Source: an uncultured delta proteobacterium
GTDB taxonomy: Bacteria; Desulfobacterota; Desulfomonilia; Desulfomonilales; Desulfomonilaceae
Length of the DNA: 64,000 nt
NCBI GenBank assembly: GCA_963789265.1
Contig: CAWBKB010000001.1
Location: 1,216,001-1,280,000, forward strand
Direction of reading: 5' to 3'
Numbering within the stretch: the first letter of the stretch is position 1; each line of letters starts with the position of its first letter. The notes beneath the pieces are model-generated. The model made no database searches. It was not told the origin of the DNA and was given only the letters and a program-made list of their open reading frames with translations. Made by a program: the position numbers and the translations under genes. Below, piece by piece: positions 2,073 to 38,687 of the stretch.

Positions 2073-4157
2073 ATGAAGCAGTACAAAACCGAGGACGTGC
2101 GTAATGTTGCGGTCGTTTCCCACGCCGGTTCAGGGAAGACGACACTGTGTGAAGCCATGCTCTTTGATGCCGGAGCAGTTGATCGTCTGGCCAAGGTCAC
2201 CGACGGGTCTTCAAATTTCGATTTCGAACCTGAAGAGGTGAAGCGAGGTCTCACGATAAGTACTGCACTGTTCACGGCTGAATGGAAGAAAAAAAAGATC
2301 AACATCCTGGACACTCCCGGTGACCCGAATTTTGCCGCTGAGGTAACTGCTGCACTGCAGGCAGCAGACATAGCCATCCTGGCGGTGGATGCAGTGGATG
2401 CGGTCAAACCGCTGACCGAAAAAGTATGGGCAGGGATTGAGGCCGCCGGCTGTCCCAGGCTCCTTGTCATAACTAAGATGGACAGAGACAGAGCTGACTT
2501 CGATAATGTGGTCAACAACGTCAAAGAGACTTTCAAAGTAAAGCCTCTAGTTTTACAGGTTCCTATTGGTAGGGAAAGCGCGTTCCAAGGAGTAATCGAC
2601 CTGCTTTCCATGAAAGCTGTGACGTTCGATGGAGATGGCAGGAACCCATCCAAAGTCGATATCCCGGACGAGTTGAAAGATGAAGCCGGATCAAGGCGCG
2701 AAGTCCTCATCGAAGACCTCGCCGAGGTTGATGACGCGCTTATGGAACGCTATCTGGAAGGGGACGAACTTGGGCCGGAAGAACTTGCAGCGGCTCTTCG
2801 AGAGGGGATACTCCGCAGAGTCTTTTTGCCGGTGCTCGCATGTTCCGGGTCTTTGAACAAGGGCATCCAACCGGTTCTGGACATTATAGCCGATGCGTGC
2901 CCTTCGCCCGCGGAAATGCCGGCCGTCGTCGGAATCACTCCAGCGGGTGAGGAAGCGTCGCGGGCTCCATCGCCTGACGAACCCTTCTGCGGGTACGTGT
3001 TCAAAACTCTCGCCGACCCCTACGCCGGAAGGCTCTCCCTCTTTCGTATTTTCTCCGGAACACTTACTGCTGATTCGAACTTCCTCAATGCAAGCCGAGG
3101 AGTCAAAGAGAGATTCGGCCAACTTCTAACTGTTCAGGGGAAGCACCAGAAACCGCTGGAATCGGCTCAAGCAGGAGACATTGTGGCGGTGGCGAAACTG
3201 AAAGAGACACTTAGCGGGGACACGCTGACGGACGAAAAAGCTCCGATAAAGATCCCGGTTGTCGCCCTTCCTCAAGCAGTTATATCCTTTGCCATAGAGC
3301 CCAAAGCGAAAGGGGATGAAGAAAAGATCACCCAGAGCCTTGCCAAGCTCGTGGAGGAAGACCCCACTCTAACCATAAGCAGAGATCCTCGGACTAATGA
3401 GTTTCTTATCTCAGGAATGGGGCAGGTGCATATTGAGGTAGTTGTAGAAAAACTGAAGCGAAAATTCGGTGTGGATGTAAACCTCAATACTCCGAAGATT
3501 CCTTATAAGGAGACAATCAAGGGGAAGGCCAAGGTCGAAGGCAAACTCAAGAAGCAGACCGGTGGCCGGGGTCAATTCGCCGTGGCCTGGCTTGAGCTAG
3601 AACCGCTCGGCCGCGGCCAGGGCTTTGAGTTTGTGGACAAAATAGTGGGTGGCGTCATTCCTCGCCAGTACATCCCGGCTGTGGAAAAAGGGGTGATCGA
3701 GGCCATGCAAGGGGGCGCATTGGCCGGGTATCCTGTCATTGATGTCAGAGTGACGGTCTTTGACGGGAAGTACCATGATGTGGATTCCTCGGAGCAAGCG
3801 TTCAAGATTGCCGCATCCAAAGGATTCAAGAAGGGCGTGCTTCAATCCACTCCGGTGCTGTTGGAACCCATCATGAACATGGAGATCATCGTGCCTGAAG
3901 ACTGCATGGGCGACGTGATGGGGGACTTAAATCCGCGGCGGGGCCGAATCAGCGGCATGGACGCGAGAGGAGGCAGCCAGGTTATCAAGGCCCAGGTGCC
4001 GATGTCTGAAGTTCTGAAGTACGCTTCGGATCTGACGTCCATGACTTCGGGGCGTGGCATCTTTTCGATGGAATTTTCGCATTACGAAGAGGTTCCCGCA
4101 CACATCACAGAGAAGATAGTGGAAGCCTCCGGCAAGACAGCGGAAGAAGAGGACTGA
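2073..4157 (+). CDS. fusA: Elongation factor G paralogue (EF-G2-like)
   Basis: 694 aa; SHAGSGKT, RGLTI, DTPG, TKMD, GMGQVH, KKQTGGRGQF, YHDVDSSE, LLEPIM; not in a str operon. Confidence 0.92.
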   Translation: MKQYKTEDVRNVAVVSHAGSGKTTLCEAMLFDAGAVDRLAKVTDGSSNFDFEPEEVKRGLTISTALFTAEWKKKKINILDTPGDPNFAAEVTAALQAADIAILAVDAVDAVKPLTEKVWAGIEAAGCPRLLVITKMDRDRADFDNVVNNVKETFKVKPLVLQVPIGRESAFQGVIDLLSMKAVTFDGDGRNPSKVDIPDELKDEAGSRREVLIEDLAEVDDALMERYLEGDELGPEELAAALREGILRRVFLPVLACSGSLNKGIQPVLDIIADACPSPAEMPAVVGITPAGEEASRAPSPDEPFCGYVFKTLADPYAGRLSLFRIFSGTLTADSNFLNASRGVKERFGQLLTVQGKHQKPLESAQAGDIVAVAKLKETLSGDTLTDEKAPIKIPVVALPQAVISFAIEPKAKGDEEKITQSLAKLVEEDPTLTISRDPRTNEFLISGMGQVHIEVVVEKLKRKFGVDVNLNTPKIPYKETIKGKAKVEGKLKKQTGGRGQFAVAWLELEPLGRGQGFEFVDKIVGGVIPRQYIPAVEKGVIEAMQGGALAGYPVIDVRVTVFDGKYHDVDSSEQAFKIAASKGFKKGVLQSTPVLLEPIMNMEIIVPEDCMGDVMGDLNPRRGRISGMDARGGSQVIKAQVPMSEVLKYASDLTSMTSGRGIFSMEFSHYEEVPAHITEKIVEASGKTAEEED

Positions 4158-5054: not shown

Positions 5055-5129
<75 letters not shown>

Positions 5130-8797: not shown

Positions 8798-9881
8798 ATG
8801 AATTTGGCTTCGGATAAACGAGCACTTGTAACAGGAGTCACTGGTCAAGACGGTGCCTATCTCTTAGAGTTCCTGCTCAAGAAGGGGTACCAGGTCTGTG
8901 GAGTCAAACGGCGTGCATCTCTGATCAATACCCAGCGGATTGATGGATTATACCAGGATCCTCATGTAGATGATCGGCATCTTATTCTCGAATACGGCGA
9001 TATGACCGATTCCACCAATCTTATTCGCATAATCCAACAGTTTCAGCCGACCGAAATCTACAATCTTGCCGCACAGAGTCATGTGAAGGTATCATTTGAG
9101 ACTGCCGAATATACCGCAAATGCGGATGCGTTAGGAACATTGCGTCTCTTGGAAGCTATCCGCATTCTGGACCTCGGGAAGAGGGTTCGCTTTTACCAGG
9201 CCTCAACGAGCGAACTCTTCGGCCTCGTGCAAGAGAGCCCTCAGCGAGAAACCACGCCATTTTATCCAAGAAGCCCATACGCGGTGGCGAAACTGTACGG
9301 ATACTGGATAGCTCGTAACTACAGAGAAGCTTACGGTTTCTTTACCTGCAATGGAATACTTTTCAATCACGAATCTCCCATGCGCGGGGAGACCTTTGTA
9401 ACCCGAAAGATCACCCGTGCGGTGGCTCGCATCAAGCTCGAAATGCAAGACAGCCTCTACCTCGGAAATCTGAACGCTCGACGCGACTGGGGATATGCCG
9501 CGGACTATGTCGAGGCTATGTGGCTTATCGTACAGCATCATGAACCGGACGATTTCGTTGTGGCTACCGGAGAAAACCATTCTGTCAGGGAATTTGTGGA
9601 ACGTGCCTTCAAGGAAGTCGGGATCAAGATTGCCTGGCAGGGGGAGGGGATAGACGAAAAAGGCATTGACGCGGGAAACCGGCCGCACACTAGTGGCTGT
9701 AGATCCCCGATACTTCCGTCCCACCGAGGTGAATGAATTGCTCGGAGACGCGACAAAAGCCCGAGATGTGCTTGGCTGGAAACCAAGGGTCACTTTCTCC
9801 GAGCTTGTCAGACGTATGGTAGTGGCTGATCTCCGAGAGGCCGAAAAGGAACAGCTCTGTCGAACTGCGGGCTTCCAATAA
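8798..9881 (+). CDS. gmd: GDP-mannose 4,6-dehydratase (one-base frameshift ~9673-9675)
   Basis: [32 protein letters not shown]-terminus [11 protein letters not shown] continues in a second frame. Confidence 0.95.
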
Positions 9882-10828
9882 TGATACTCAGCAAGCCTTC
9901 ACTTAGAATCTATGTGGCCGGTCACACGGGGATGGTAGGATCCGCCATTTGCAGACGCCTCGCCCGGTCCGGCTACTCGGTCATGAAACCTGCCTCCCGG
10001 GTGGATCTGTGCGATCAGCAGGCTACTCAGAAGTTGCTCGGCGAATTGAAGCCCGACTGGATATTTTTGGCCGCGGCCAAGGTCGGAGGCATTCATGCCA
10101 ACAATACGTACCCGGCTCAATTCATCTATCAAAACCTGACCATTCAAACCAATGTCATTCATGCGGCATACGTGAACAAGGTCAAGAAGCTCCTTTTCCT
10201 CGGCAGTTCGTGCATCTACCCCAAGCTGGCACCGCAGCCCATCAAGGAAGAATATCTGTTGAGCGGTTACCTGGAGCCCACCAACGAAGCGTATTCGATT
10301 GCCAAGATAGCCGGCATCATCATGTGCCAATCATATAACAGGGAGTACGGAACAAATTTCATTTCCCTAATGCCGACCAACTTGTACGGCCCGGGAGACA
10401 ATTTCGATCTGCAGAACGCCCATGTCATCCCCGCATTACTTCGGAAGACCCATGAGGCTCACGAATCGGGAGCGGAATACGTGGAGATCTGGGGGAGCGG
10501 CAGGCCGCGTCGGGAGTTCCTGCATGTGGATGATCTCGCAGATGCCTGTGTGTTCATGATGGAAAATTATGATTCGCATGAAATTGTCAACATAGGAGCC
10601 GGTATTGACATTACTATCCACGATCTGGCTCTGCTTATTAAGGACGTAGTTGGGTACAAGGGAGATATCCGGTTCAACTCAAATATGCCCGACGGCACTC
10701 CACAAAAGCTTCTTAATGTGAGCCGAATATCTGAACTCGGTTGGAAGCCCTCAATACCATTGAGAGAAGGACTGGGGGCCACGTACAGGTGGTTCATTGC
10801 TAATCGGCAAAGTGTGCGGGAAATTTGA
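9881..10828 (+). CDS. fcl: GDP-L-fucose synthase
   Basis: AGHTGMVGSA, AAKVGGI, GSSCIYP, YSIAK, RREFLHVDD; coupled to gmd. Confidence 0.96.
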   Translation: MILSKPSLRIYVAGHTGMVGSAICRRLARSGYSVMKPASRVDLCDQQATQKLLGELKPDWIFLAAAKVGGIHANNTYPAQFIYQNLTIQTNVIHAAYVNKVKKLLFLGSSCIYPKLAPQPIKEEYLLSGYLEPTNEAYSIAKIAGIIMCQSYNREYGTNFISLMPTNLYGPGDNFDLQNAHVIPALLRKTHEAHESGAEYVEIWGSGRPRREFLHVDDLADACVFMMENYDSHEIVNIGAGIDITIHDLALLIKDVVGYKGDIRFNSNMPDGTPQKLLNVSRISELGWKPSIPLREGLGATYRWFIANRQSVREI

Positions 10829-11020
10829 CATCAACGCGGGAATGCCTTTGCATTGAGCAAAATAGGGATTCCACCCATAGGCGTTAAAATAACGAACCTA
10901 TGCCCTCTAACCCCCCTTTAGTAAAGGAGGGAAGGGGGGATTTTGAATGCGAATTGGTTTGAGTCACCGGTGGGCAGTTCAGGCGACGGTGTCGTCTTCG
11001 GCCGTATGGAGGTGGTCACC

Positions 11021-11287
11021 ATGCAGAAAGAGGTTACATGTTGCGATTCTTGTGAGAAGATCCTCACCCGAGGCGGTATCAGGATGCATACCGGGACAGA
11101 TGGAGAAACGGTTGACTTCTGCCCTGATTGCATTGCTGCACTTCTACCCGATTACGCCGCTCGAACAAAGACCAGCTTCTTGACAGTTCAGATCTCGCGA
11201 AACGATTACGTAGTTCTTGCGGCAAAAGGCCGGGAAGACCAGGCATCGGAAGATGACGCCGAAAACGGAGGAGAAGGGGTTGCCTAG
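11021..11287 (+). CDS. Small hypothetical protein with two CxxC pairs (putative Zn finger)
   Basis: GGAGG SD before ATG 11021; CDSC...CPDC. Confidence 0.65.
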   Translation: MQKEVTCCDSCEKILTRGGIRMHTGTDGETVDFCPDCIAALLPDYAARTKTSFLTVQISRNDYVVLAAKGREDQASEDDAENGGEGVA

Positions 11288-11311
11288 CCAAGCTCAGGGG
11301 GGCCTTACGGC

Positions 11312-11343
11312 AAAAAAAAAGCAATCCAAGTAGGAGGATTGCT
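11312..11343 (-). terminator. Rho-independent terminator
   Basis: AGCAATCC-8 nt loop-GGATTGCT followed by a T8 run on the minus strand. Confidence 0.85.
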
Positions 11344-11373
11344 AAAGGGTATGGTTTAGGAGTCGTTGTTGCC
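11312..11373 (-). ncRNA. Candidate sigma54-dependent sRNA (~62 nt)
   Basis: Bounded by a consensus sigma54 promoter and an intrinsic terminator; no convincing ORF inside. Confidence 0.65.
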
Positions 11374-11383
11374 TATTGTTGTT

Positions 11384-11400
11384 AGCAACTACCGTGCCAA
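11384..11400 (-). promoter_or_regulatory. Sigma54 (-24/-12) promoter
   Basis: Minus strand TTGGCACGGTAGTTGCT matches TGGCAC-N5-TTGCW exactly. Confidence 0.85.
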
Positions 11401-11607
11401 GGCATAGAACATGCTGTTATTGTTGGGTCTGCCGGCAAATCAGGGCTTGCCGCGAGTCTGCTGGATGGTTAATTATTTCTCACCTTACAGGCAGGTTTCT
11501 CCTGCAGTGCGCAAAGTTTTCCCAGGTTGCCCCCGTACCGGGTAACCGAAGTGTTGCTTGCCAAAGCAAACAATTCACGGAGGTTGCGAACACGATGAGA
11601 ATGCAGT

Positions 11608-11817
11608 CTATCCACAGGTGTTTATAACTTCACTGGCTCTGAGCTTACTCAGAACCATGCTCTCCGGATTTCGAATAGTTATGCTTATCGTTTGATATTG
11701 CTGATTAAACCTAACTGTCCCGGTTTGGAGCAGATCGGTCCGAATCTTGAAACTCCGCTGAGTTATCAAAATTATCCACAACTCTACCATCAAGTTATCC
11801 ACAGGCTCTGTGGACCC
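11608..11817. promoter_or_regulatory. DnaA-box cluster (candidate oriC or DnaA regulatory site)
   Basis: Perfect TTATCCACA at 11772-80 and 11795-803; CTATCCACA at 11608-16; TTATAAACA (minus) at 11619-27; weaker boxes at 11763-71 and 11809-17. Confidence 0.65.
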
Positions 11818-12100
11818 CCCGCGCAAATTGGATGTCAAGAATTAATTTTTCTTCGGAACCTTGGACGAGGCTGAGTGTCCTAACCAACAAGCCCATGTGC
11901 GAAAGGCATCTACATGCCTGTTTCCGGGTGCTGCGGAAGGAATCCCCCGAATATACTATCATTCGTCTTTAGGCGAGATTCCTTCGAGGCAGAATGCGCG
12001 CATGGGCTTTCGACGTTCTTGGGTGGGTGTCCCGGGAGGATTAATCTGAAAATGTGATATAGTGGCAAACTGATACAGGCTTCTTAGTTCAGAGGTTTTC

Positions 12101-14230
12101 ATGGGAAATTGCCGGCCCCCACGCGGAGATTCTTTTGAGAGCACGGAATCAATCGACGTGGGCGATTTGTTGATCGAAGACGTAACCTCGTCCGGCAGCT
12201 TCGACTTAATGCAATTTGGCACCACTCCTTTCGGGAAATTGCTCCAAGCTTTGCCCGTTCCCGTCCTGTTGATCGACCGGTCCTTTCGCATAATCTTTGC
12301 CAACCGAGCATGTGGCAAAATAAACGCGGAATATGAAAGATTTGTGAGCGGCCCCGTCGACGTAATATCTTCCGATACGCACTCGATAAAGATCGTCCGA
12401 TCCCATTTAAAGGAAGTTTTTTCCACCAGAAAACCGCAGACTTGTGAAGCCGTGCTCCGGACGGGAAGAATCGGCGTCTGGGGTCGCTTATCTTTCCGGT
12501 CTATTAGGAGTGAAGATGAGCGCCTGATACTATTGGTTGTCGAAGATCTTACCGCCGAGAAGAAACAGCTCATTATAAGTGAGAGATACCAGGATGAATT
12601 GCAGAAGGAAGTCGTCGAGCGCAAGAAGGCGGAACGGGCGCTTGAGCAAGCGAATCGGGAACTGGAAGATCGGATAGAACAACGCACATTGGAGTTACTG
12701 AAACTAAACGACCAGATGGAGCAGGAAATCGCTGAACGAGAGCGTGCCCAGAGGCTATTGTACGAGAGTCAGGAGAGGCTCGAGTTGGCGCTGAAAGGAG
12801 CGGATCTTGGGTTATGGGACTACGACATAGAAAAGAATGTGGGATTCGTTGATCAAGTCTGGGCGGATATTTTCGGTTACTCCCTCGAAGACCTGCCGCC
12901 GGACATAAACTTGTGGAGAAGCTTGCTTCATCCGGAAGATAGACCCGCCGTAATTGAAGCATGGAATGCCCACCTGGAAGGCCGTAAGCCTTTTTACGAG
13001 GCGGAGCATAGGGTAAAGGCCAAGTCGGGAGAATGGAATTGGGTCCTGTCCCGGGGGAAGGTTGTAGAACGAGACAGGCACGGCAAGCCTTTACGAGTCT
13101 CCGGAACAGCCTATAACATCTCGGATCGCAAGCTCGCGGAAGAAAAACTTTTGCAAATGTCCAAGGTCTTCATGGAATCGATAGACCCGATCTTCATTAG
13201 AGACCTGGAAGGCAACATAATCGATCTGAACAAGGCGGCTGAAGATACTTACGGATGGTCTCGGGACGAGTTGATCGGCAAGTCTGTCAAGACAATCGTA
13301 TCCGCCACTCGGCACGACGTAGTGGACGAGTTACATGAGAGATGCAAGCGCGGAGATAAAGTGGAAAACGTGGAAGCGCTCCACCGAAATAAGTCGGGTG
13401 ATGTCATACCTGTCCTGGTAAGCCTTTCTCTCTTGACGAACAAGAAAGGTGAGCCGGTGGGCATTGCAAGCATTGCCAAAAACCTGAGCGATCTCAAGCG
13501 GACCGAGGAAATGCTTCGAGCCAAGACCGACGCGTTGGTGCGCAGCAACAAGGATTTGGAGGAGTTTGCTTATGTTGCAGCGCATGACCTGAGGGAACCA
13601 CTTGTCGGAATCGCCGCTTATTTAAAGGTCCTGGAGAAGCGCTTCAAAGCCAGACTCGACCCGGAGGCTCACAAATTTGTCTCCCGTGCACTGGAAATAA
13701 CTATCCGAATGGACTCCCTGGTGCAAAGCCTTCTGTCTTATGCGCGTTTGGGGACTGGGACAAAGTCGTTTCAGCCGACTGACTGTACGGTGGCGCTGGA
13801 GCGAGCCCTATCTAACTTGAGGTCTGCGCTGGAGGAAATCCACGTCAAAGTCAGCAGAGGGCCACTCCCGACCGTGATGGGAAATCTTTCGCAAATGGTC
13901 CAATTATTTCAGAATCTTGTTAGCAATGCCATCAAGTTTGCCGGAGACAGACCTCTTGAGATTCATATCGGCGCGCTGCCGGATGAATCCCAGTGGAAGT
14001 TCTATGTGAAGGATAATGGAATTGGCATCGAACCACCATATTTCGACAGGATCTTTAGAATCTTTCAACGGCTTGAAGCGACTCAGGAACGCGCAGGAAC
14101 GGGTATTGGCCTGGCTAGTTGCAAAAGGATTGTGGAGAGCCACGGTGGGCGAATTTGGGTGGAATCCGAACCCGGCAAGGGCTCGACCTTCTTCTTTACC
14201 ATACCGCGCTCCAAGGAATCCGTGACTTGA
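12101..14230 (+). CDS. Multi-PAS sensor histidine kinase
   Basis: PAS/PAC segments, FAYVAAHDLREPL H-box, NLVSNAIKF, DNGIGI, GTGIGL. Confidence 0.95.
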   Translation: MGNCRPPRGDSFESTESIDVGDLLIEDVTSSGSFDLMQFGTTPFGKLLQALPVPVLLIDRSFRIIFANRACGKINAEYERFVSGPVDVISSDTHSIKIVRSHLKEVFSTRKPQTCEAVLRTGRIGVWGRLSFRSIRSEDERLILLVVEDLTAEKKQLIISERYQDELQKEVVERKKAERALEQANRELEDRIEQRTLELLKLNDQMEQEIAERERAQRLLYESQERLELALKGADLGLWDYDIEKNVGFVDQVWADIFGYSLEDLPPDINLWRSLLHPEDRPAVIEAWNAHLEGRKPFYEAEHRVKAKSGEWNWVLSRGKVVERDRHGKPLRVSGTAYNISDRKLAEEKLLQMSKVFMESIDPIFIRDLEGNIIDLNKAAEDTYGWSRDELIGKSVKTIVSATRHDVVDELHERCKRGDKVENVEALHRNKSGDVIPVLVSLSLLTNKKGEPVGIASIAKNLSDLKRTEEMLRAKTDALVRSNKDLEEFAYVAAHDLREPLVGIAAYLKVLEKRFKARLDPEAHKFVSRALEITIRMDSLVQSLLSYARLGTGTKSFQPTDCTVALERALSNLRSALEEIHVKVSRGPLPTVMGNLSQMVQLFQNLVSNAIKFAGDRPLEIHIGALPDESQWKFYVKDNGIGIEPPYFDRIFRIFQRLEATQERAGTGIGLASCKRIVESHGGRIWVESEPGKGSTFFFTIPRSKESVT

Positions 14231-14644: not shown

Positions 14645-14953
14645 ATGCTGAAATACAAATGCCTGTTGTGCGGAATCGAGTGGGGCGACCCAAGAGCGTC
14701 GGAATCCGACATCTCCCACGGATACTGCCCTACCTGCATACGAAAACAGTACACGAGTAGGATTCATAGGGCCCAGCGAGAAGCCGGGTACTCTGATTGT
14801 TTCAACCGCGGGCACAATGACTGCGCGGAACATGCTTGCTGCTTCAGAACAGCATGTCAAGAGGATTTGGTAAAAAGCTGGAAAAGGGCAATCATTCAAG
14901 GAGACGCAGGGGTGGAACCCGAAGGATTGATCTGCGATGCTGCGACCGCATAA
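14645..14953 (+). CDS. Small Cys-rich hypothetical protein
   Basis: AGGAG SD; CLLC..SHGYCPTC and DCF..C..CC..C. Confidence 0.75.
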   Translation: MLKYKCLLCGIEWGDPRASESDISHGYCPTCIRKQYTSRIHRAQREAGYSDCFNRGHNDCAEHACCFRTACQEDLVKSWKRAIIQGDAGVEPEGLICDAATA

Positions 14954-17012: not shown

Positions 17013-19617
17013 CGCAGACCTCCCGAATCAGCGTCCATTCTTCATCCAGCCGTTCCAATGCACCTGCCGCGGAAAGAGGACCGAGTATCCTTTTCGGCGG
17101 AGAGAAACGAACTAAAAAGTCTTGCAGACTGCTGAACAGTCCCCTTCTTTCGCGCTCGGCTATTATTCTCCGAGCTGTTGCCTCGCCCACTCCGTTTATC
17201 ACTCGGAGAGGAACTCTGATGCCCCGACCTTCAGCCTCATACTGCAAGCCGCTGTAATTCACATGGGGAGGATACACAGGGATCCCTTTTCTTCTCGCTT
17301 CATTCAAAATCACATACGGTGGATACGAGCCGACCTGACCCGCATTGAGCAAGCCTATGTAGAATGCCTGGGGATGGTGGGCCTTCAGGTATGCGCTCTG
17401 GTACGTGATGTGGGCAAAGCTGGCGGCATGAGCTTTACAGAACCCAAAACTGGCGAACGCGGCGATTCTGTTGAAGATCTGTTCGGCAAGTCTTCGACTA
17501 TACCCCCCCTTAGTAGCCCCCTCAATGAATTGGTGTTTTAGGGATTCCATCGCGCCCGACTTGCGATCCTTCGTCATAGCCCTACGGAACAAGTCTGCGT
17601 CGCTATACGGCAAGCCAGCGAAGGTATGTACGATACGCAACACCTGCTCCTGGAAGAGAATCACTCCATACGTATCGAAAAGAATGGGAACGAGGTCGTT
17701 GTGAGGGATTTTGACAGGTTCCTGCCTGTTCCTTCTTTTCACATACACCTGAACCATGTCCCCCTCAACAGGCCCAGGTCTGAAAAGGCTGATCTCATCT
17801 ATCAGATCGCCGAAGCGTCTCGGCTGTAGGTGACCGAGCAAGTTTCTCTGGCCCGGTGATTCGAGCTGGAAAACTCCGAGAGTCTCAGTAGTGCGGAGAA
17901 GGGCATAGGTCTTTTTGTCATCCAGGGGCATTCGATCGAGGTCCAAGAATATCCCCTTATTCTTAAGCAGTTTCAATGCCTTCCGAATAGCTGTGTGCGT
18001 CCTTAGACCTAAGATGTCCAATTTCAACAACCCCAGAACATCAACATCGTCCTTATCCAATTGCCCAACAGGGAGTTCGTGCGGTGACAGCCCCACCGGA
18101 GTCCAATCCTTCACATCCCTCGGTGCGATGACTACCCCGCCGAGATGTGTCGAGCACTGGAACGGGAGACCGGTCAGTTTCGCGGCAATCTGAATGAGTC
18201 GGTCTTCTTTCTTGAGCGGTGAGTCCTTTAATTCAGGCAGATTTCCAAGTGCTTCATTCAGATCGTGGCCTCGGAGCGACCAGGGAAGGCATGTGGCAAG
18301 GCGATCTATTTCGGTCAAGGAATAGCCGAGGGAACGAGCCGCCAGTCGCACGGCGCTCCGTACCTTGAACGTATGAATGGTACAAACCATTGCCGTTTGC
18401 CTGGGGAACAAATTCATGAGGTGGCGGATAACCTCGTCCCGCCGATCGGAGTCAAAGTCCACGTCAATGTCCGGTAGATCGCGCCTGCCTTCGTTGATAA
18501 AGCGTTCAAACAAAAGATTGTGGCGTATCGGGTCCACTCCGCCCAACAGGAGATGAATCACCAAACTACCGGCTGCGGATCCGCGAACGCTGTGGCGAAT
18601 GCCTTGTTTGCGAGCGAATTTAACTACTTTTCGGATCAAGAGGAAAAAGTCGGCCAACTTCAACTGGTTTATGACGGTTAATTCATGGTCTATCTGCCGT
18701 AGATAATGAGTCGGAATGGGGCGATAACGTTTGGCCGCCTCTTTATAGGTCAGAATTGTGAGATCCTTTGATGCTTCACCGGAACGACGAAACGACGGCG
18801 GATGGAGCCGTCCTATAGGAAATGAGAAGCCGCGGCAGAGTTCCGCGATAAGGGATGTATTCTCAAGAGCCTCAGTATATGGAACACGTCGCTTCATCTC
18901 CGAACCTGAAGCCAAAAAGTAGCGATCGTTGGGTAGTGGTTCAATAAAGCGGTGATGATGATGGTTTTGAATTCCCACAAGAGTTTGATGAATTATGTAA
19001 TCTTCAGGCTTGAGAAAAGCCACGTCATTGGTCGCGACAGTCGGGATACCCAGGCTCCCGGATATTTCCAGGGCCTGTTCCATGACCGAATATGCTTCCT
19101 TCGCCGGTTCTTCAGGCTGAGCGTGGTTTTGGAGAATCAGAAACAGCGACTGCTTCTCATGCAGAACTTTCCTTATTTCAATTAAGGACTGCCTTGCAGC
19201 ATCAATCCTACCTTTTTCCAACAAGTTTTTAATGATCGAGCCCCTGCCGCCGGCGAGGCATATCAATCCCTCGCTCCAGTGGGACAAGTCCTGTTTGGTT
19301 ATGAAGTTTGTCTGAGATGTTCCGCCTTCCAGGGCAAGGGAGAGAAGACGGCAGAGATTTCCATACCCTTGGAAGTCTGATGCCAGAAGAATCACCGGGG
19401 AGCCGTCCCATATCGAAATCTTAGCTCCAACAATAGGTTGTATTCCGGCAGCGATGGCAGCCTTATAAAACCTGATTGCCCCGTGAACGCCGTCATCCGT
19501 GAGGGCCACTGCCCTTTGACCGAGGGCAATCGTCTCTTCAACCAGTGCTTCCGGTGTAAAAGTTCCCCAGAGGAAAGAGAAGGCGCTTTGAACTTCAAGA
19601 TGTACGAAATTATCCAT
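17002..19617 (-). CDS. dnaE2: Error-prone DNA polymerase III alpha (DnaE2-like), lacking OB domain
   Basis: Degenerate PHP domain, RGSAAGS, PDIDVDF, KLDILGL, FQLESPGQ, FGFCKAHAASFA. Confidence 0.9.
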   Translation of the reverse strand: MDNFVHLEVQSAFSFLWGTFTPEALVEETIALGQRAVALTDDGVHGAIRFYKAAIAAGIQPIVGAKISIWDGSPVILLASDFQGYGNLCRLLSLALEGGTSQTNFITKQDLSHWSEGLICLAGGRGSIIKNLLEKGRIDAARQSLIEIRKVLHEKQSLFLILQNHAQPEEPAKEAYSVMEQALEISGSLGIPTVATNDVAFLKPEDYIIHQTLVGIQNHHHHRFIEPLPNDRYFLASGSEMKRRVPYTEALENTSLIAELCRGFSFPIGRLHPPSFRRSGEASKDLTILTYKEAAKRYRPIPTHYLRQIDHELTVINQLKLADFFLLIRKVVKFARKQGIRHSVRGSAAGSLVIHLLLGGVDPIRHNLLFERFINEGRRDLPDIDVDFDSDRRDEVIRHLMNLFPRQTAMVCTIHTFKVRSAVRLAARSLGYSLTEIDRLATCLPWSLRGHDLNEALGNLPELKDSPLKKEDRLIQIAAKLTGLPFQCSTHLGGVVIAPRDVKDWTPVGLSPHELPVGQLDKDDVDVLGLLKLDILGLRTHTAIRKALKLLKNKGIFLDLDRMPLDDKKTYALLRTTETLGVFQLESPGQRNLLGHLQPRRFGDLIDEISLFRPGPVEGDMVQVYVKRRNRQEPVKIPHNDLVPILFDTYGVILFQEQVLRIVHTFAGLPYSDADLFRRAMTKDRKSGAMESLKHQFIEGATKGGYSRRLAEQIFNRIAAFASFGFCKAHAASFAHITYQSAYLKAHHPQAFYIGLLNAGQVGSYPPYVILNEARRKGIPVYPPHVNYSGLQYEAEGRGIRVPLRVINGVGEATARRIIAERERRGLFSSLQDFLVRFSPPKRILGPLSAAGALERLDEEWTLIREVCDAG

Positions 19618-36899: not shown

Positions 36900-38687
36900 A
36901 TGAACCCGCGAAAAAGAATCTTGATAGTCGACGATGACGAACAGAATCGGGAGTTGCTGGAAGCCATGTTGGAGTCTCTGGGGTATAGGTCCGACCTGGC
37001 TGATAGCGGGATTAGCGCGTTGGCCAAGCTGAACGCGGACATCGATTTAGTGCTTATGGACATCATGATGCCCGGAATGGACGGTTTCGAAGCAGTCCGC
37101 AGAATTCGCAACCTTCCGGAAGTTGGAGACATTCCCATCATCATGGTTACCGTGCTCGGCGGAAAAAAGGACCGCCTGGAAGCAGTAGACGCCGGAGCCA
37201 ACGATTTCATCACCAAGCCCGTTGACAAACTCGAACTCCGGGTACGGGTTGCCTCTCTGTTGCGAATGAAGGAGGCGCAGGATGCAATCAAGCGCCACAA
37301 GGCCGAGCTCGAGGCAGAAGTTGAAAAACGGACTGCCGAGTTGAAGGAAAGCGAAGAGCGCTTCAGATATATTTTCGAAGCCGGCCAGGACTGTATGTTC
37401 GTGAAAGACGGGGACCGGAGATACTCTCACCTCAATCCCGCCATGCTTGCCATTGTGGAAAAGGACCCCACGGAAATCATCGGAAAAACAGATGAGGAGC
37501 TGTTCGCTGTGGAATGGGCGGCCCGGATGAAAAGCGTGGACGAGCGGGTCCTTCAAGGACAGCCGGCAGAATCCGAACTGAACCTTCTTTGTAAAGACCG
37601 GCCTACCACTTTCAACATTGTCAGATTCCCCATGCGAGATGGTTCGGGCAAAATAATAGGCCTGTGCGGGATAGCTCGTGACGTCACCGAACGCAGAGCG
37701 CGGGAATCTGAAATGAGAATTCGCTCTGGTCCTCCGGGCTCCAATATTATGCAGACCACGCTGGAGTTGGTACGCCGCGCGGCCAAGACTGACAGCTTGG
37801 TCCTTTTCACAGGCGAGAGCGGGAGCGGAAAGGATTATCTGGCTAAATACCTGCACCAACATTCAGGTCGGATTTCAGGTCCTTATTTCGCGATAAACTG
37901 TGCGGCCATTGCCCCAAATGTCGCAGAATCGGAACTTTTCGGACACGAAACGGGGTCTTTCACAGGCGCTCGTGGGCGCAAGCGGGGACTTCTTGAGTTG
38001 GCAGAAGGGGGAACCCTGCTGCTGAACGAGGTTGGCGAACTCTGTCCCGAGTTGCAGGCGAAGCTCCTCACGTTCATGGACACGCATACATTCACGCGAG
38101 TTGGCGGTGAAAGCAACATCCGGGTGAATACCAGAATCGTGGCCGCCACCAACCGTGACCTTGAAAAGGATGTTGAATCGGGAAGGTTCCGAAAAGACTT
38201 ATTCTTTCGGCTCAACGTCTTCCAAGTGACAGTCCCGCCGTTGCGGGAGAGAATAGAGGACTTGCCCACATTGATTGACGAGATACTCCCGGCTTTGGCT
38301 GAAAAAATTGGGCTTCATGATGCCCCCGCGATCGATTCCGATGCCAGGGATGCCCTTAGAAACTATAGCTGGCCCGGCAATGTCAGAGAGTTGCGCAACA
38401 CGCTGGAACGGGCGCTGATTCTCTGCGACAAGAAATATATCACCTCGAAGGACTTGTGCATGCATTCGGAGACGGAACCTTCCTCCGGACGCAAAGGAGA
38501 CATCTCGTTGACGCTTCATCTGGGCCGGGACGATTCAATGCACGATATACTGACGGAAACGAAGAGGTATCTTGTAACGGAGAGCCTGAAGCGATCCGGA
38601 GGCAGTATCAAAAAGGCGGCACAGTTCCTGGGGATTACACGCGACTCGCTTACCCACCACATGAGATCCCTTGGAATCCGCAAGTAG
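36900..38687 (+). CDS. Sigma54-dependent activator (REC-PAS-AAA+-HTH)
   Basis: GESGSGKD, ESELFGHETGSFTGA, WPGNVREL, C-terminal HTH; Walker B reads LLLNE. Confidence 0.95.
   Translation: MNPRKRILIVDDDEQNRELLEAMLESLGYRSDLADSGISALAKLNADIDLVLMDIMMPGMDGFEAVRRIRNLPEVGDIPIIMVTVLGGKKDRLEAVDAGANDFITKPVDKLELRVRVASLLRMKEAQDAIKRHKAELEAEVEKRTAELKESEERFRYIFEAGQDCMFVKDGDRRYSHLNPAMLAIVEKDPTEIIGKTDEELFAVEWAARMKSVDERVLQGQPAESELNLLCKDRPTTFNIVRFPMRDGSGKIIGLCGIARDVTERRARESEMRIRSGPPGSNIMQTTLELVRRAAKTDSLVLFTGESGSGKDYLAKYLHQHSGRISGPYFAINCAAIAPNVAESELFGHETGSFTGARGRKRGLLELAEGGTLLLNEVGELCPELQAKLLTFMDTHTFTRVGGESNIRVNTRIVAATNRDLEKDVESGRFRKDLFFRLNVFQVTVPPLRERIEDLPTLIDEILPALAEKIGLHDAPAIDSDARDALRNYSWPGNVRELRNTLERALILCDKKYITSKDLCMHSETEPSSGRKGDISLTLHLGRDDSMHDILTETKRYLVTESLKRSGGSIKKAAQFLGITRDSLTHHMRSLGIRK

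Follow-up and report, generated by a model that had tools for sequence, protein, structure and literature searches.

Outside a handful of model phyla, to our knowledge, hardly any regulatory RNAs have been described. Among the described small RNAs (sRNAs) that depend on sigma-54, the quorum-regulatory Qrr1-5 of Vibrio are transcribed with sigma-54 plus LuxO. They occur as several near-identical paralogues per genome, each with its own sigma-54 promoter, upstream sites, and Rho-independent terminator, and a long invariant single-stranded seed supports Hfq-type pairing at translation start regions. GlmY and GlmZ of the Enterobacteriaceae depend on sigma-54 plus GlrR and are structured RNAs of ~150 to 200 nt; protein mimicry is the mode of GlmY, and target activation is that of GlmZ. 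In Desulfovibrio vulgaris Hildenborough, the text of two reports describes sigma-54-dependent noncoding RNAs (ncRNAs), with Dv_sRNA2 under the response regulator DVU0679 and others under DVU0653, DVU1419, and DVU2359 (PMC3333781, PMC4641369). Here, we analyzed a 64,000-nt stretch (the window; positions 1,216,001 to 1,280,000 of contig CAWBKB010000001.1, assembly GCA_963789265.1) from an uncultured member of the Desulfomonilaceae, in which an earlier note made from the letters alone had proposed a sigma-54-dependent sRNA on the minus strand at 11312 to 11400. Members of the Desulfomonile lineage are organohalide-respiring and sulfate-reducing anaerobes that are largely uncultured, and a full-text literature search for sRNA, noncoding RNA, or RpoN/sigma54 reports on Desulfomonile found none. 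The locus is best explained, on comparative sequence evidence, as one of four paralogous genes for a lineage-specific trans-acting sRNA of ~60 nt.

The predicted RNA resembles Qrr1-5 in having several paralogues per genome, each with its own sigma-54 promoter and upstream sites, in its Rho-independent terminator, and in its long invariant single-stranded seed, and the same mode of pairing at translation starts is proposed for it. Unlike Qrr1-5, it is shorter and has a single hairpin; the two share no sequence or Rfam relationship and differ in lineage, upstream-site motif, and targets. Whereas qrr1 lies beside luxO, no activator gene adjoins any copy of the window RNA. Like GlmY and GlmZ, its copies are homologous paralogues with sigma-54 promoters and upstream activator sites, but there is no sequence relationship to those longer, structured RNAs that act by mimicry or activation. 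The Desulfovibrio ncRNAs are likewise sRNAs with sigma-54 promoters in sulfate-reducing relatives; in the text of those reports, they have dedicated enhancer-binding proteins (EBPs), and their functions are given as unknown (PMC3333781, PMC4641369). They are described there as lying beside or near regulator genes, in contrast to the family described here, which is not adjacent to an EBP gene; the comparison covers gene position. The words of the upstream sites had 0 matches in the text of two Desulfovibrio papers, motif figures and supplements lying outside the search. Judging from its sequence, the RNA very probably represents a new family within a known type of regulatory RNA. Its novelty, which the earlier note had proposed to check in Rfam, is borne out at both the gathering and the E-value level: at the gathering level of Rfam 15, only a tRNA elsewhere in the window matched, and the RNA locus falls in no family. 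The best permissive match over the locus was RF01489 (sbrA of Listeria), which is similarly short and likewise has a terminator and an unpaired stretch rich in C (CCUAAAC). As this match scored 12.9 bits (E = 6) and the gathering score is 45, we rejected membership and regard the resemblance as chance.

Read on the minus strand, the locus consists of the promoter TTGGCACGGTAGTTGCT, 11 variable bases, and then GGCAACAACGACTCCTAAACCATACCCTTTAGCAATCCTCCTACTTGGATTGCT followed by T8 (11373 to 11312); the RNA sequence ahead of the T run ending at 11312 is GGCAACAACGACTCCTAAACCATACCCTTTAGCAATCCTCCTACTTGGATTGC (Table 1). The promoter carries the GG at -24 and the GC at -12 of the sigma-54 pattern TGGCAC-N5-TTGC at exact spacing, and the C of the -12 GC, at 11385, places the predicted +1 at G11373, as the earlier note had read it. 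A terminator scan recovered the hairpin that was said to end a unit of ~62 nt: positions 11343 to 11320 form 8 pairs, 4 of them G-C, around a loop of 8, and a T run follows. Folding of the 62-nt RNA returned the terminator hairpin alone at -11.9 kcal/mol (z = -3.9; 0 of 200 shuffles as low), with the first 30 nt unpaired, in agreement with the proposed unstructured 5' half.

Table 1. Coordinates of the predicted RNA gene and its parts, its candidate upstream sites, the four copies in the genome, and the candidate target starts (coordinates without a contig name are window positions; C1, which holds the window, C3, C5, and C7 are contigs of the same genome)
Feature	Coordinates	Strand	Basis or remark
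Sigma-54 (-24/-12) promoter, TTGGCACGGTAGTTGCT	11384..11400	-	Consensus match
Predicted small RNA, 62 nt, +1 G11373 to end of U-run	11312..11373	-	Sequence and covariance model R1
Intrinsic terminator	11312..11343	-	Stem 11343-11336 with 11327-11320, 8-nt loop, U8 at 11319-11312
Core seed, AAACCAUACCCU, in unstructured 5' half	11346..11357	-	Invariant alignment columns
AUCCUCC anti-Shine-Dalgarno stretch	11333..11339	-	Last four 5'-arm pairs and first three loop bases
Distal upstream activator site, candidate EBP site, TGGGAAAACTTTGCGCA	11508..11524	-	Center -118 from promoter GG; 2 of 14 positions mismatched
Proximal upstream activator site, candidate, TGAGAAATAATTAACCA	11466..11482	-	Center -76; 4 of 14 positions mismatched, weak match
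Canonical copy	C3:702962-703023		92 bits
Window copy	C1:1227312-1227372		77 bits (77.4 bits, E 8.9e-14 with R1)
C1b copy	C1:1544575-1544635		61 bits
C5 copy	C5:316522-316581		58 bits
T1, candidate target start	C3:882976	-	Loci L129-L131
T2, candidate target start	C3:882262	-	Loci L129-L131
T3, candidate target start	C7:389987	-	Loci L129-L131
T4, candidate target start	C7:66485	-	Loci L129-L131
T5, candidate target start	C7:65908	-	Loci L129-L131

The unit recurs across the family. Of 41 relatives, 24 were matched by BLAST with a query of 101 to 121 nt, among them 23 of 24 family genomes, whereas none of 16 sister-family genomes was matched. Across the family, BLAST matched in 67 of 70 genomes with the window's own included, covering 36 of 36 high-quality genomes and 25 of 26 genera. 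Promoter, seed, and terminator, whose conservation in relatives the earlier note had proposed to check, are conserved, the promoter in 69 of 70 loci. A covariance model built from 54 distinct copies (R1) found 1 to 6 copies per genome in 66 of 69 family genomes and none in 52 sister-family genomes; the three family genomes without a match are 73 to 85% complete. A sample of 151 genomes from the phylum gave family matches only, plus one marginal match of 26 bits. An exact scan for the seed pattern in all species-representative genomes returned 62 stretches, whose record titles name Desulfomonile, Desulfomonilaceae, Desulfomonilales, broader or older labels (Syntrophaceae, Syntrophales, delta proteobacterium, Thermodesulfobacteriota, and Pseudomonadota), and one Opitutales. 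The Opitutales match was rejected as a homolog: it lacks both promoter and terminator and is an expected chance match. Across these searches, the predicted RNA family is confined to the Desulfomonilaceae.

The genome of the window carries four copies, all with -24/-12 promoters. Two further observations concern the arrangement of copies in other genomes. In many genera, the gene immediately preceding the canonical copy ends in ...DGFFAAR(F/L) (loci L014, L015, L018, L035, L040, L043-L048, L069, L075, and L096, among others), an ending that we take, by eye, to resemble the C terminus of an RsmB/Sun-type methyltransferase. Some relatives have tandem sRNA copies, each with its own sigma-54 promoter, as in locus L084 (~210 nt apart, with one activator-like site between the two genes, ahead of the downstream copy) and in genome G008 (C22:18157-18217 and 18363-18427).

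The 54 distinct copies have the consensus GAACAACGACUCCUAACCAUACCCUCUUAGCAAUCCUCC, a variable loop, GGAUUGCU, and U8-9. Their alignment has 30 invariant columns, and CCAUACCCU, within the unpaired 5' half, is identical in 54 of 54. The promoter stands at a fixed distance in 69 of 70 nonredundant loci, with the GG-N10-GC spacing and the form TTGGCAC(g)-N4-TTGCT, and its -12 C sits 17 to 18 nt ahead of a conserved AACG in 66 of 69. Information content is 1.9 to 2.0 bits at TGGCA and TTGC, falls to 0.1 to 0.6 between -12 and +1, and is high again from AACAACG. Conservation begins ~3 nt past the predicted +1 and ends at the U-run, and the flanks and neighboring genes vary between genomes, a pattern that speaks for the independent small RNA that had been proposed. 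The terminator helix is paired in 98.8% of cells across the alignment; two of its eight pairs show compensatory AU-to-CG changes (3 sequences each), and four never vary. CCUCC recurs in 66 of 69 loci, among them some with another stem sequence. A nearly invariant 5'-terminal AACAACGACUCCU is almost as conserved as the core. We consider it highly likely that these loci form a genuine family of sigma-54-dependent sRNA genes.

Control by an enhancer-binding protein, also proposed in the earlier note, gains comparative support from the fixed-distance promoter, from paired upstream sites, and from the presence of rpoN in the genome (Sigma54_DBD, 204.9 bits). Most loci carry two sites like TGCGAAA-N3-TTTCGCA, centered ~-115 and ~-75 from the GG and 40 to 43 bp apart; most homologous loci have a site at the distal position (-114 to -119), the proximal position is -72 to -76, and the spacing at the window copy is 42 bp. 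Allowing at most 4 mismatches in the 14 specified positions, we found one site or more in 55 of 67 loci and two or more in 32; the corresponding shares of shuffles were 6.6% and 0.2%. Several of the loci scored as site-less show related, more diverged sites at the same positions. Copies of the C5 type are without TGCGAAA-N3-TTTCGCA sites and, since the palindromes are absent, may answer to another activator. The genome also encodes hfq (85.7 bits) and has 43 Sigma54_activat matches, ~38 of which are full-length EBP genes. With two EBP AAA+ domains as tblastn queries, no EBP gene turned up in 104 sRNA-related loci (0.4 to 1.5 kb of flank). The EBP gene nearest to the window copy, for a protein of 682 aa, is 26 kb off (window ~37740 to 38228; C1:1253740-1254228), and no link between the two is shown.

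Outside the sRNA loci, the combination of a site pair and a sigma-54 promoter occurs once more in the genome, at C3:655914 on the minus strand. There (C3:655600-656040; L132 ~3600-4040), two TGCGAAA-type sites, GTGCGAAAATATTTCCCAC and AGTGCGAAAATATTTAGCT, lie 42 bp apart and accompany the sigma-54 promoter TTGGCACGACCATTGCT, which precedes a leader of ~250 nt containing ACCCUCUU...AAGGGAGAGGG (a possible hairpin), a small open reading frame (ORF), and an M3 peptidase gene. This unit is possibly coregulated with the sRNAs, to judge from its sites. A separate sigma-54 promoter, TTGGCACAATTGTTGCT, lies at C1:1215184 on the minus strand, ~800 nt ahead of the window start. It has a single weak activator-like site ~90 bp upstream and precedes a membrane-protein ORF beside the sugar-nucleotide/glycosyltransferase genes of the window.

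A genome-wide complementarity scan pointed to five sites, all of them translation starts of small-protein genes (T1 to T5); the energies of this whole-genome duplex scan are inflated, with long interior loops permitted, and served only to find candidates. The five genes form two tandem pairs and a singleton and encode products of 124 to 165 aa whose signal peptides begin with MVK[KR] and whose bodies are rich in Cys, Pro, and Gly. Neither Pfam nor NCBIfam has a family for any of them; for T3, the ESM Atlas gave no usable neighbor, and an AlphaFold prediction from a 14-sequence alignment was unusable (mean pLDDT, 30.4). Downstream of T1/T2 lies an ECF sigma/anti-sigma pair that is kept only within the genus, and we draw no inference from it.

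The five start sites read AAAGGAGGAU(0-3 nt)GGGUAUGGUUA, with the common sequence AAAGGAGGAT(0-3 nt)GGGTATGGT(T/C)AA. The invariant core of the RNA, (U)AACCAUACCCU(C), is a perfect 9- to 16-nt complement of the five start-codon regions. The seed region, which includes CCAUACCC, is complementary to GGGUAUGGUU(A) over the AUG of all five genes, GAGGGUAUGGUUA being the perfect complement of UAACCAUACCCUC. In addition, the AUCCUCC of the hairpin is complementary to the GGAGGAU Shine-Dalgarno of the five candidates, GGAGGAU(UG) being the complement of (CA)AUCCUCC. The complementarity of an invariant core to the start codon and Shine-Dalgarno of five conserved genes lends comparative support to the proposed blocking of ribosome-binding sites. 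Of the two anti-Shine-Dalgarno motifs that the earlier note had singled out, the UCCUCCU in the hairpin stands, in that it lines up with the GGAGGAU of the targets, and the ACUCCU in the 5' half, which had been stressed, does not: the main seed is (U)AACCAUACCCU(C), and only 12 of 8,661 crude ORF starts have a complement of at least 9 nt to the 5' 19 nt, none of them conserved-looking, a number judged not to be an enrichment, without a shuffle test.

Perfect pairing extends over 9 to 13 nt for the canonical copy, 9 to 16 nt for the C5 copy, and 9 to 11 nt for the window copy, compared with maxima of 9 to 11 nt in 300 shuffles; the seeds of C5-type copies reach 15 to 16 nt. Seed-only duplexes of the four copies have energies of -16.7 to -26.8 kcal/mol. 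Among the 8,661 ORF starts, four of the five targets rank 1, 2, 5, and 7 with the canonical copy and 2, 4, 7, and 12 with the window copy, T3 being outside the top 14 shown. Of 69 family genomes, 68 carry the pattern GGAGGAT-N0-3-GGGTATGGT, most of them five times and arranged as two tandem pairs and a singleton; 2 of 52 sister-family genomes carry it, once each, and a reversed control pattern had 0 matches in every listed genome. Over 27 loci, codon 2 of 39 start sites reads GTT in 37 cases and GTC in 2, never GTA or GTG, and the five gene groups diverge upstream of -20 and past codon 4 while sharing the start-site core. T3 is a single-copy gene found in 66 of 69 family genomes and 0 of 52 of the sister family, with 53 to 90% identity across the family. 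On balance, we favor the view that the five start sites are true targets repressed by seed pairing.

The mechanism that we propose would proceed as follows. An enhancer-binding protein would bind the two palindromic sites ~75 and ~115 bp upstream and activate sigma-54 RNA polymerase, and transcription would begin at about G11373 and stop at the intrinsic terminator. The free 5' half would then use its core, (U)AACCAUACCCU(C), to pair around the start codons of the five mRNAs, and the AUCCUCC of the hairpin may additionally contact their Shine-Dalgarno sequences, so that ribosome binding would be blocked, probably with the help of Hfq. The RNA is thus likely to be an EBP-controlled, probably Hfq-assisted, trans-acting translational repressor of five mRNAs for small secreted proteins.

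Several observations weigh against this reading. None of the 43 Sigma54_activat matches lies near any of the four copies, and the window copy itself is a divergent paralogue, with a score of 77 compared with 92 bits, an extra A in the seed, and 2 and 4 mismatches in its upstream sites. The same family restriction applies to the sRNA, to the start-site motif, and to at least T3, so their co-occurrence does not count as independent evidence. Since neither seed nor start site varies, no compensatory change links them, and the five targets share one start-site type and amount to roughly one observation. Of 300 composition-matched shuffles, 6 reached the real mean energy with the window copy, 15 with C1b, and 1 each with the canonical and C5 copies; the gain over shuffles is only moderate, since the RNA is C-rich and the site G-rich. 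Part of the AUCCUCC belongs to the terminator stem, so that this stem would need to open. Lastly, the five targets do not account for the conserved 5' AACAACGACUCCU, which contains AAC-AAC, an A-R-N-like repeat of the kind that the distal face of Hfq binds; a role for it in Hfq binding is speculation. A sequencing run labeled "RNA?" that is probably DNA was set aside as evidence of expression: within 10900 to 12300, three short contigs match only ~11309 to 11373 and continue into unlike flanks, a further sigma-54 promoter standing in one of these, and because the flanks are unlike, we take the contigs to be DNA copies from relatives, with no bearing on expression.

Some of these points would also suit a genuine sigma-54 sRNA for which the five start sites are not physiological targets and which acts through its 5' AACAACGACUCCU on other mRNAs or by activation, as a sponge, or by protein binding. 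That 5' end, nearly as conserved as the core, is unneeded for the proposed pairing; the energies of the window copy are only moderately better than those of shuffles (6 of 300 reach the real mean); and the targets, being of one start-site type, are not independent observations. We nevertheless consider this alternative unlikely. Against it stand 13- to 16-nt perfect complements centered on the AUG, start-site ranks of 1, 2, 5, and 7 among 8,661, and a start-site motif shared by 68 of 69 family genomes. The ACUCCU complements (12 of 8,661 at 9 nt or more) were judged no more than expected, without a shuffle test. In place of the multiple loop GGA motifs of the CsrB/RsmZ type, the RNA has one GGA, located in the 3' terminator arm, and so does not look like a CsrA/RsmA sponge.

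Explanations that dispense with a regulatory RNA fare worse. The conserved element might act as DNA, as a docking site for sigma-54 holoenzyme or an EBP, or in cis, as a leader or attenuator of a neighboring gene. The predicted RNA gene is known here from DNA alone, and sigma-54 is reported to bind many sites without obvious driven genes (PMC4591121). Against such an element, which we rate as very improbable, conservation is higher in the predicted transcript than from -12 to +1, and the strong terminator keeps its pairing through compensatory changes; neighboring genes differ between genomes, and the next gene downstream in the window, a 114-aa ORF at 10943 to 11287 (+), is convergent with the RNA gene, so the unit is not a leader. 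Small ORFs are sometimes hidden in short conserved transcripts, which is why we considered that the RNA might encode a very small protein; nothing speaks for it here. ATG and GTG are absent from the 62 nt and the sole TTG lies in the 3' arm of the hairpin, which leaves no ORF, in line with the earlier note. The alignment, with single-base indels between homologs in its conserved part, is incompatible with coding, and we give this explanation practically no weight. The same holds for a chance juxtaposition of promoter-like and terminator-like sites, although either element alone is within chance for the window: TGGCACG-N4-TTGCW with at most 1 mismatch has 1 match where 0.60 is expected (46 of 100 shuffles have at least one), and positions 9000 to 14000 hold 3 terminator-like sites where 5.0 are expected. 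The combination, and above all its conservation, is far beyond chance, and the whole unit, retained in 67 of 70 genomes of the family and present as multiple paralogues, already refutes juxtaposition by accident.

The surroundings of the window copy have features of their own. Between the RNA gene and a divergent PAS/PAS histidine-kinase gene (12101 to 14230, +) lies an unusually long intergenic region of ~700 nt (11400 to 12100), which had no Rfam match. In the closest relative (L004), its sequence is conserved at least as far as ~330 nt upstream of the RNA, well past both activator sites. The divergent arrangement with the kinase gene is syntenic only in the closest relative (G001), and we claim no link between the two. 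Two ORFs on the plus strand, at 10943 to 11287 and 14645 to 14953, encode small, Cys-rich proteins of 114 and 102 aa with CxxC pairs and no Pfam family; the former is 80% identical in G001. The start site of the latter holds TAGGAGTCG, a 9-nt complement of the 5' part of the RNA, which is probably due to chance. The tRNA gene matched by Rfam lies at 5055 to 5126 (+; 71.9 bits).

For a computational find, the case is unusually complete, comprising a promoter class, activator sites, RNA ends, a seed, paralogues, and a small conserved candidate regulon, and the covariance model is ready for annotating the RNA family. Tentatively, and with somewhat less than even confidence, we suggest a self-contained lineage-specific module in which a multicopy, sigma-54/EBP-driven sRNA family arose together with a regulon of five lineage-specific secreted Cys/Pro-rich proteins and acts as a two-point clamp on the start site, with the seed on the AUG and the sequence-invariant 5' arm and loop of the terminator, CAAUCCUCC, on the Shine-Dalgarno. 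If true, such a clamp would explain why the terminator stem is frozen in sequence across 26 genera, and different paralogues may take different enhancer-protein inputs. The RNA family would provide a first handle on five conserved secreted proteins without a known family and on one of the many orphan EBPs of these genomes.

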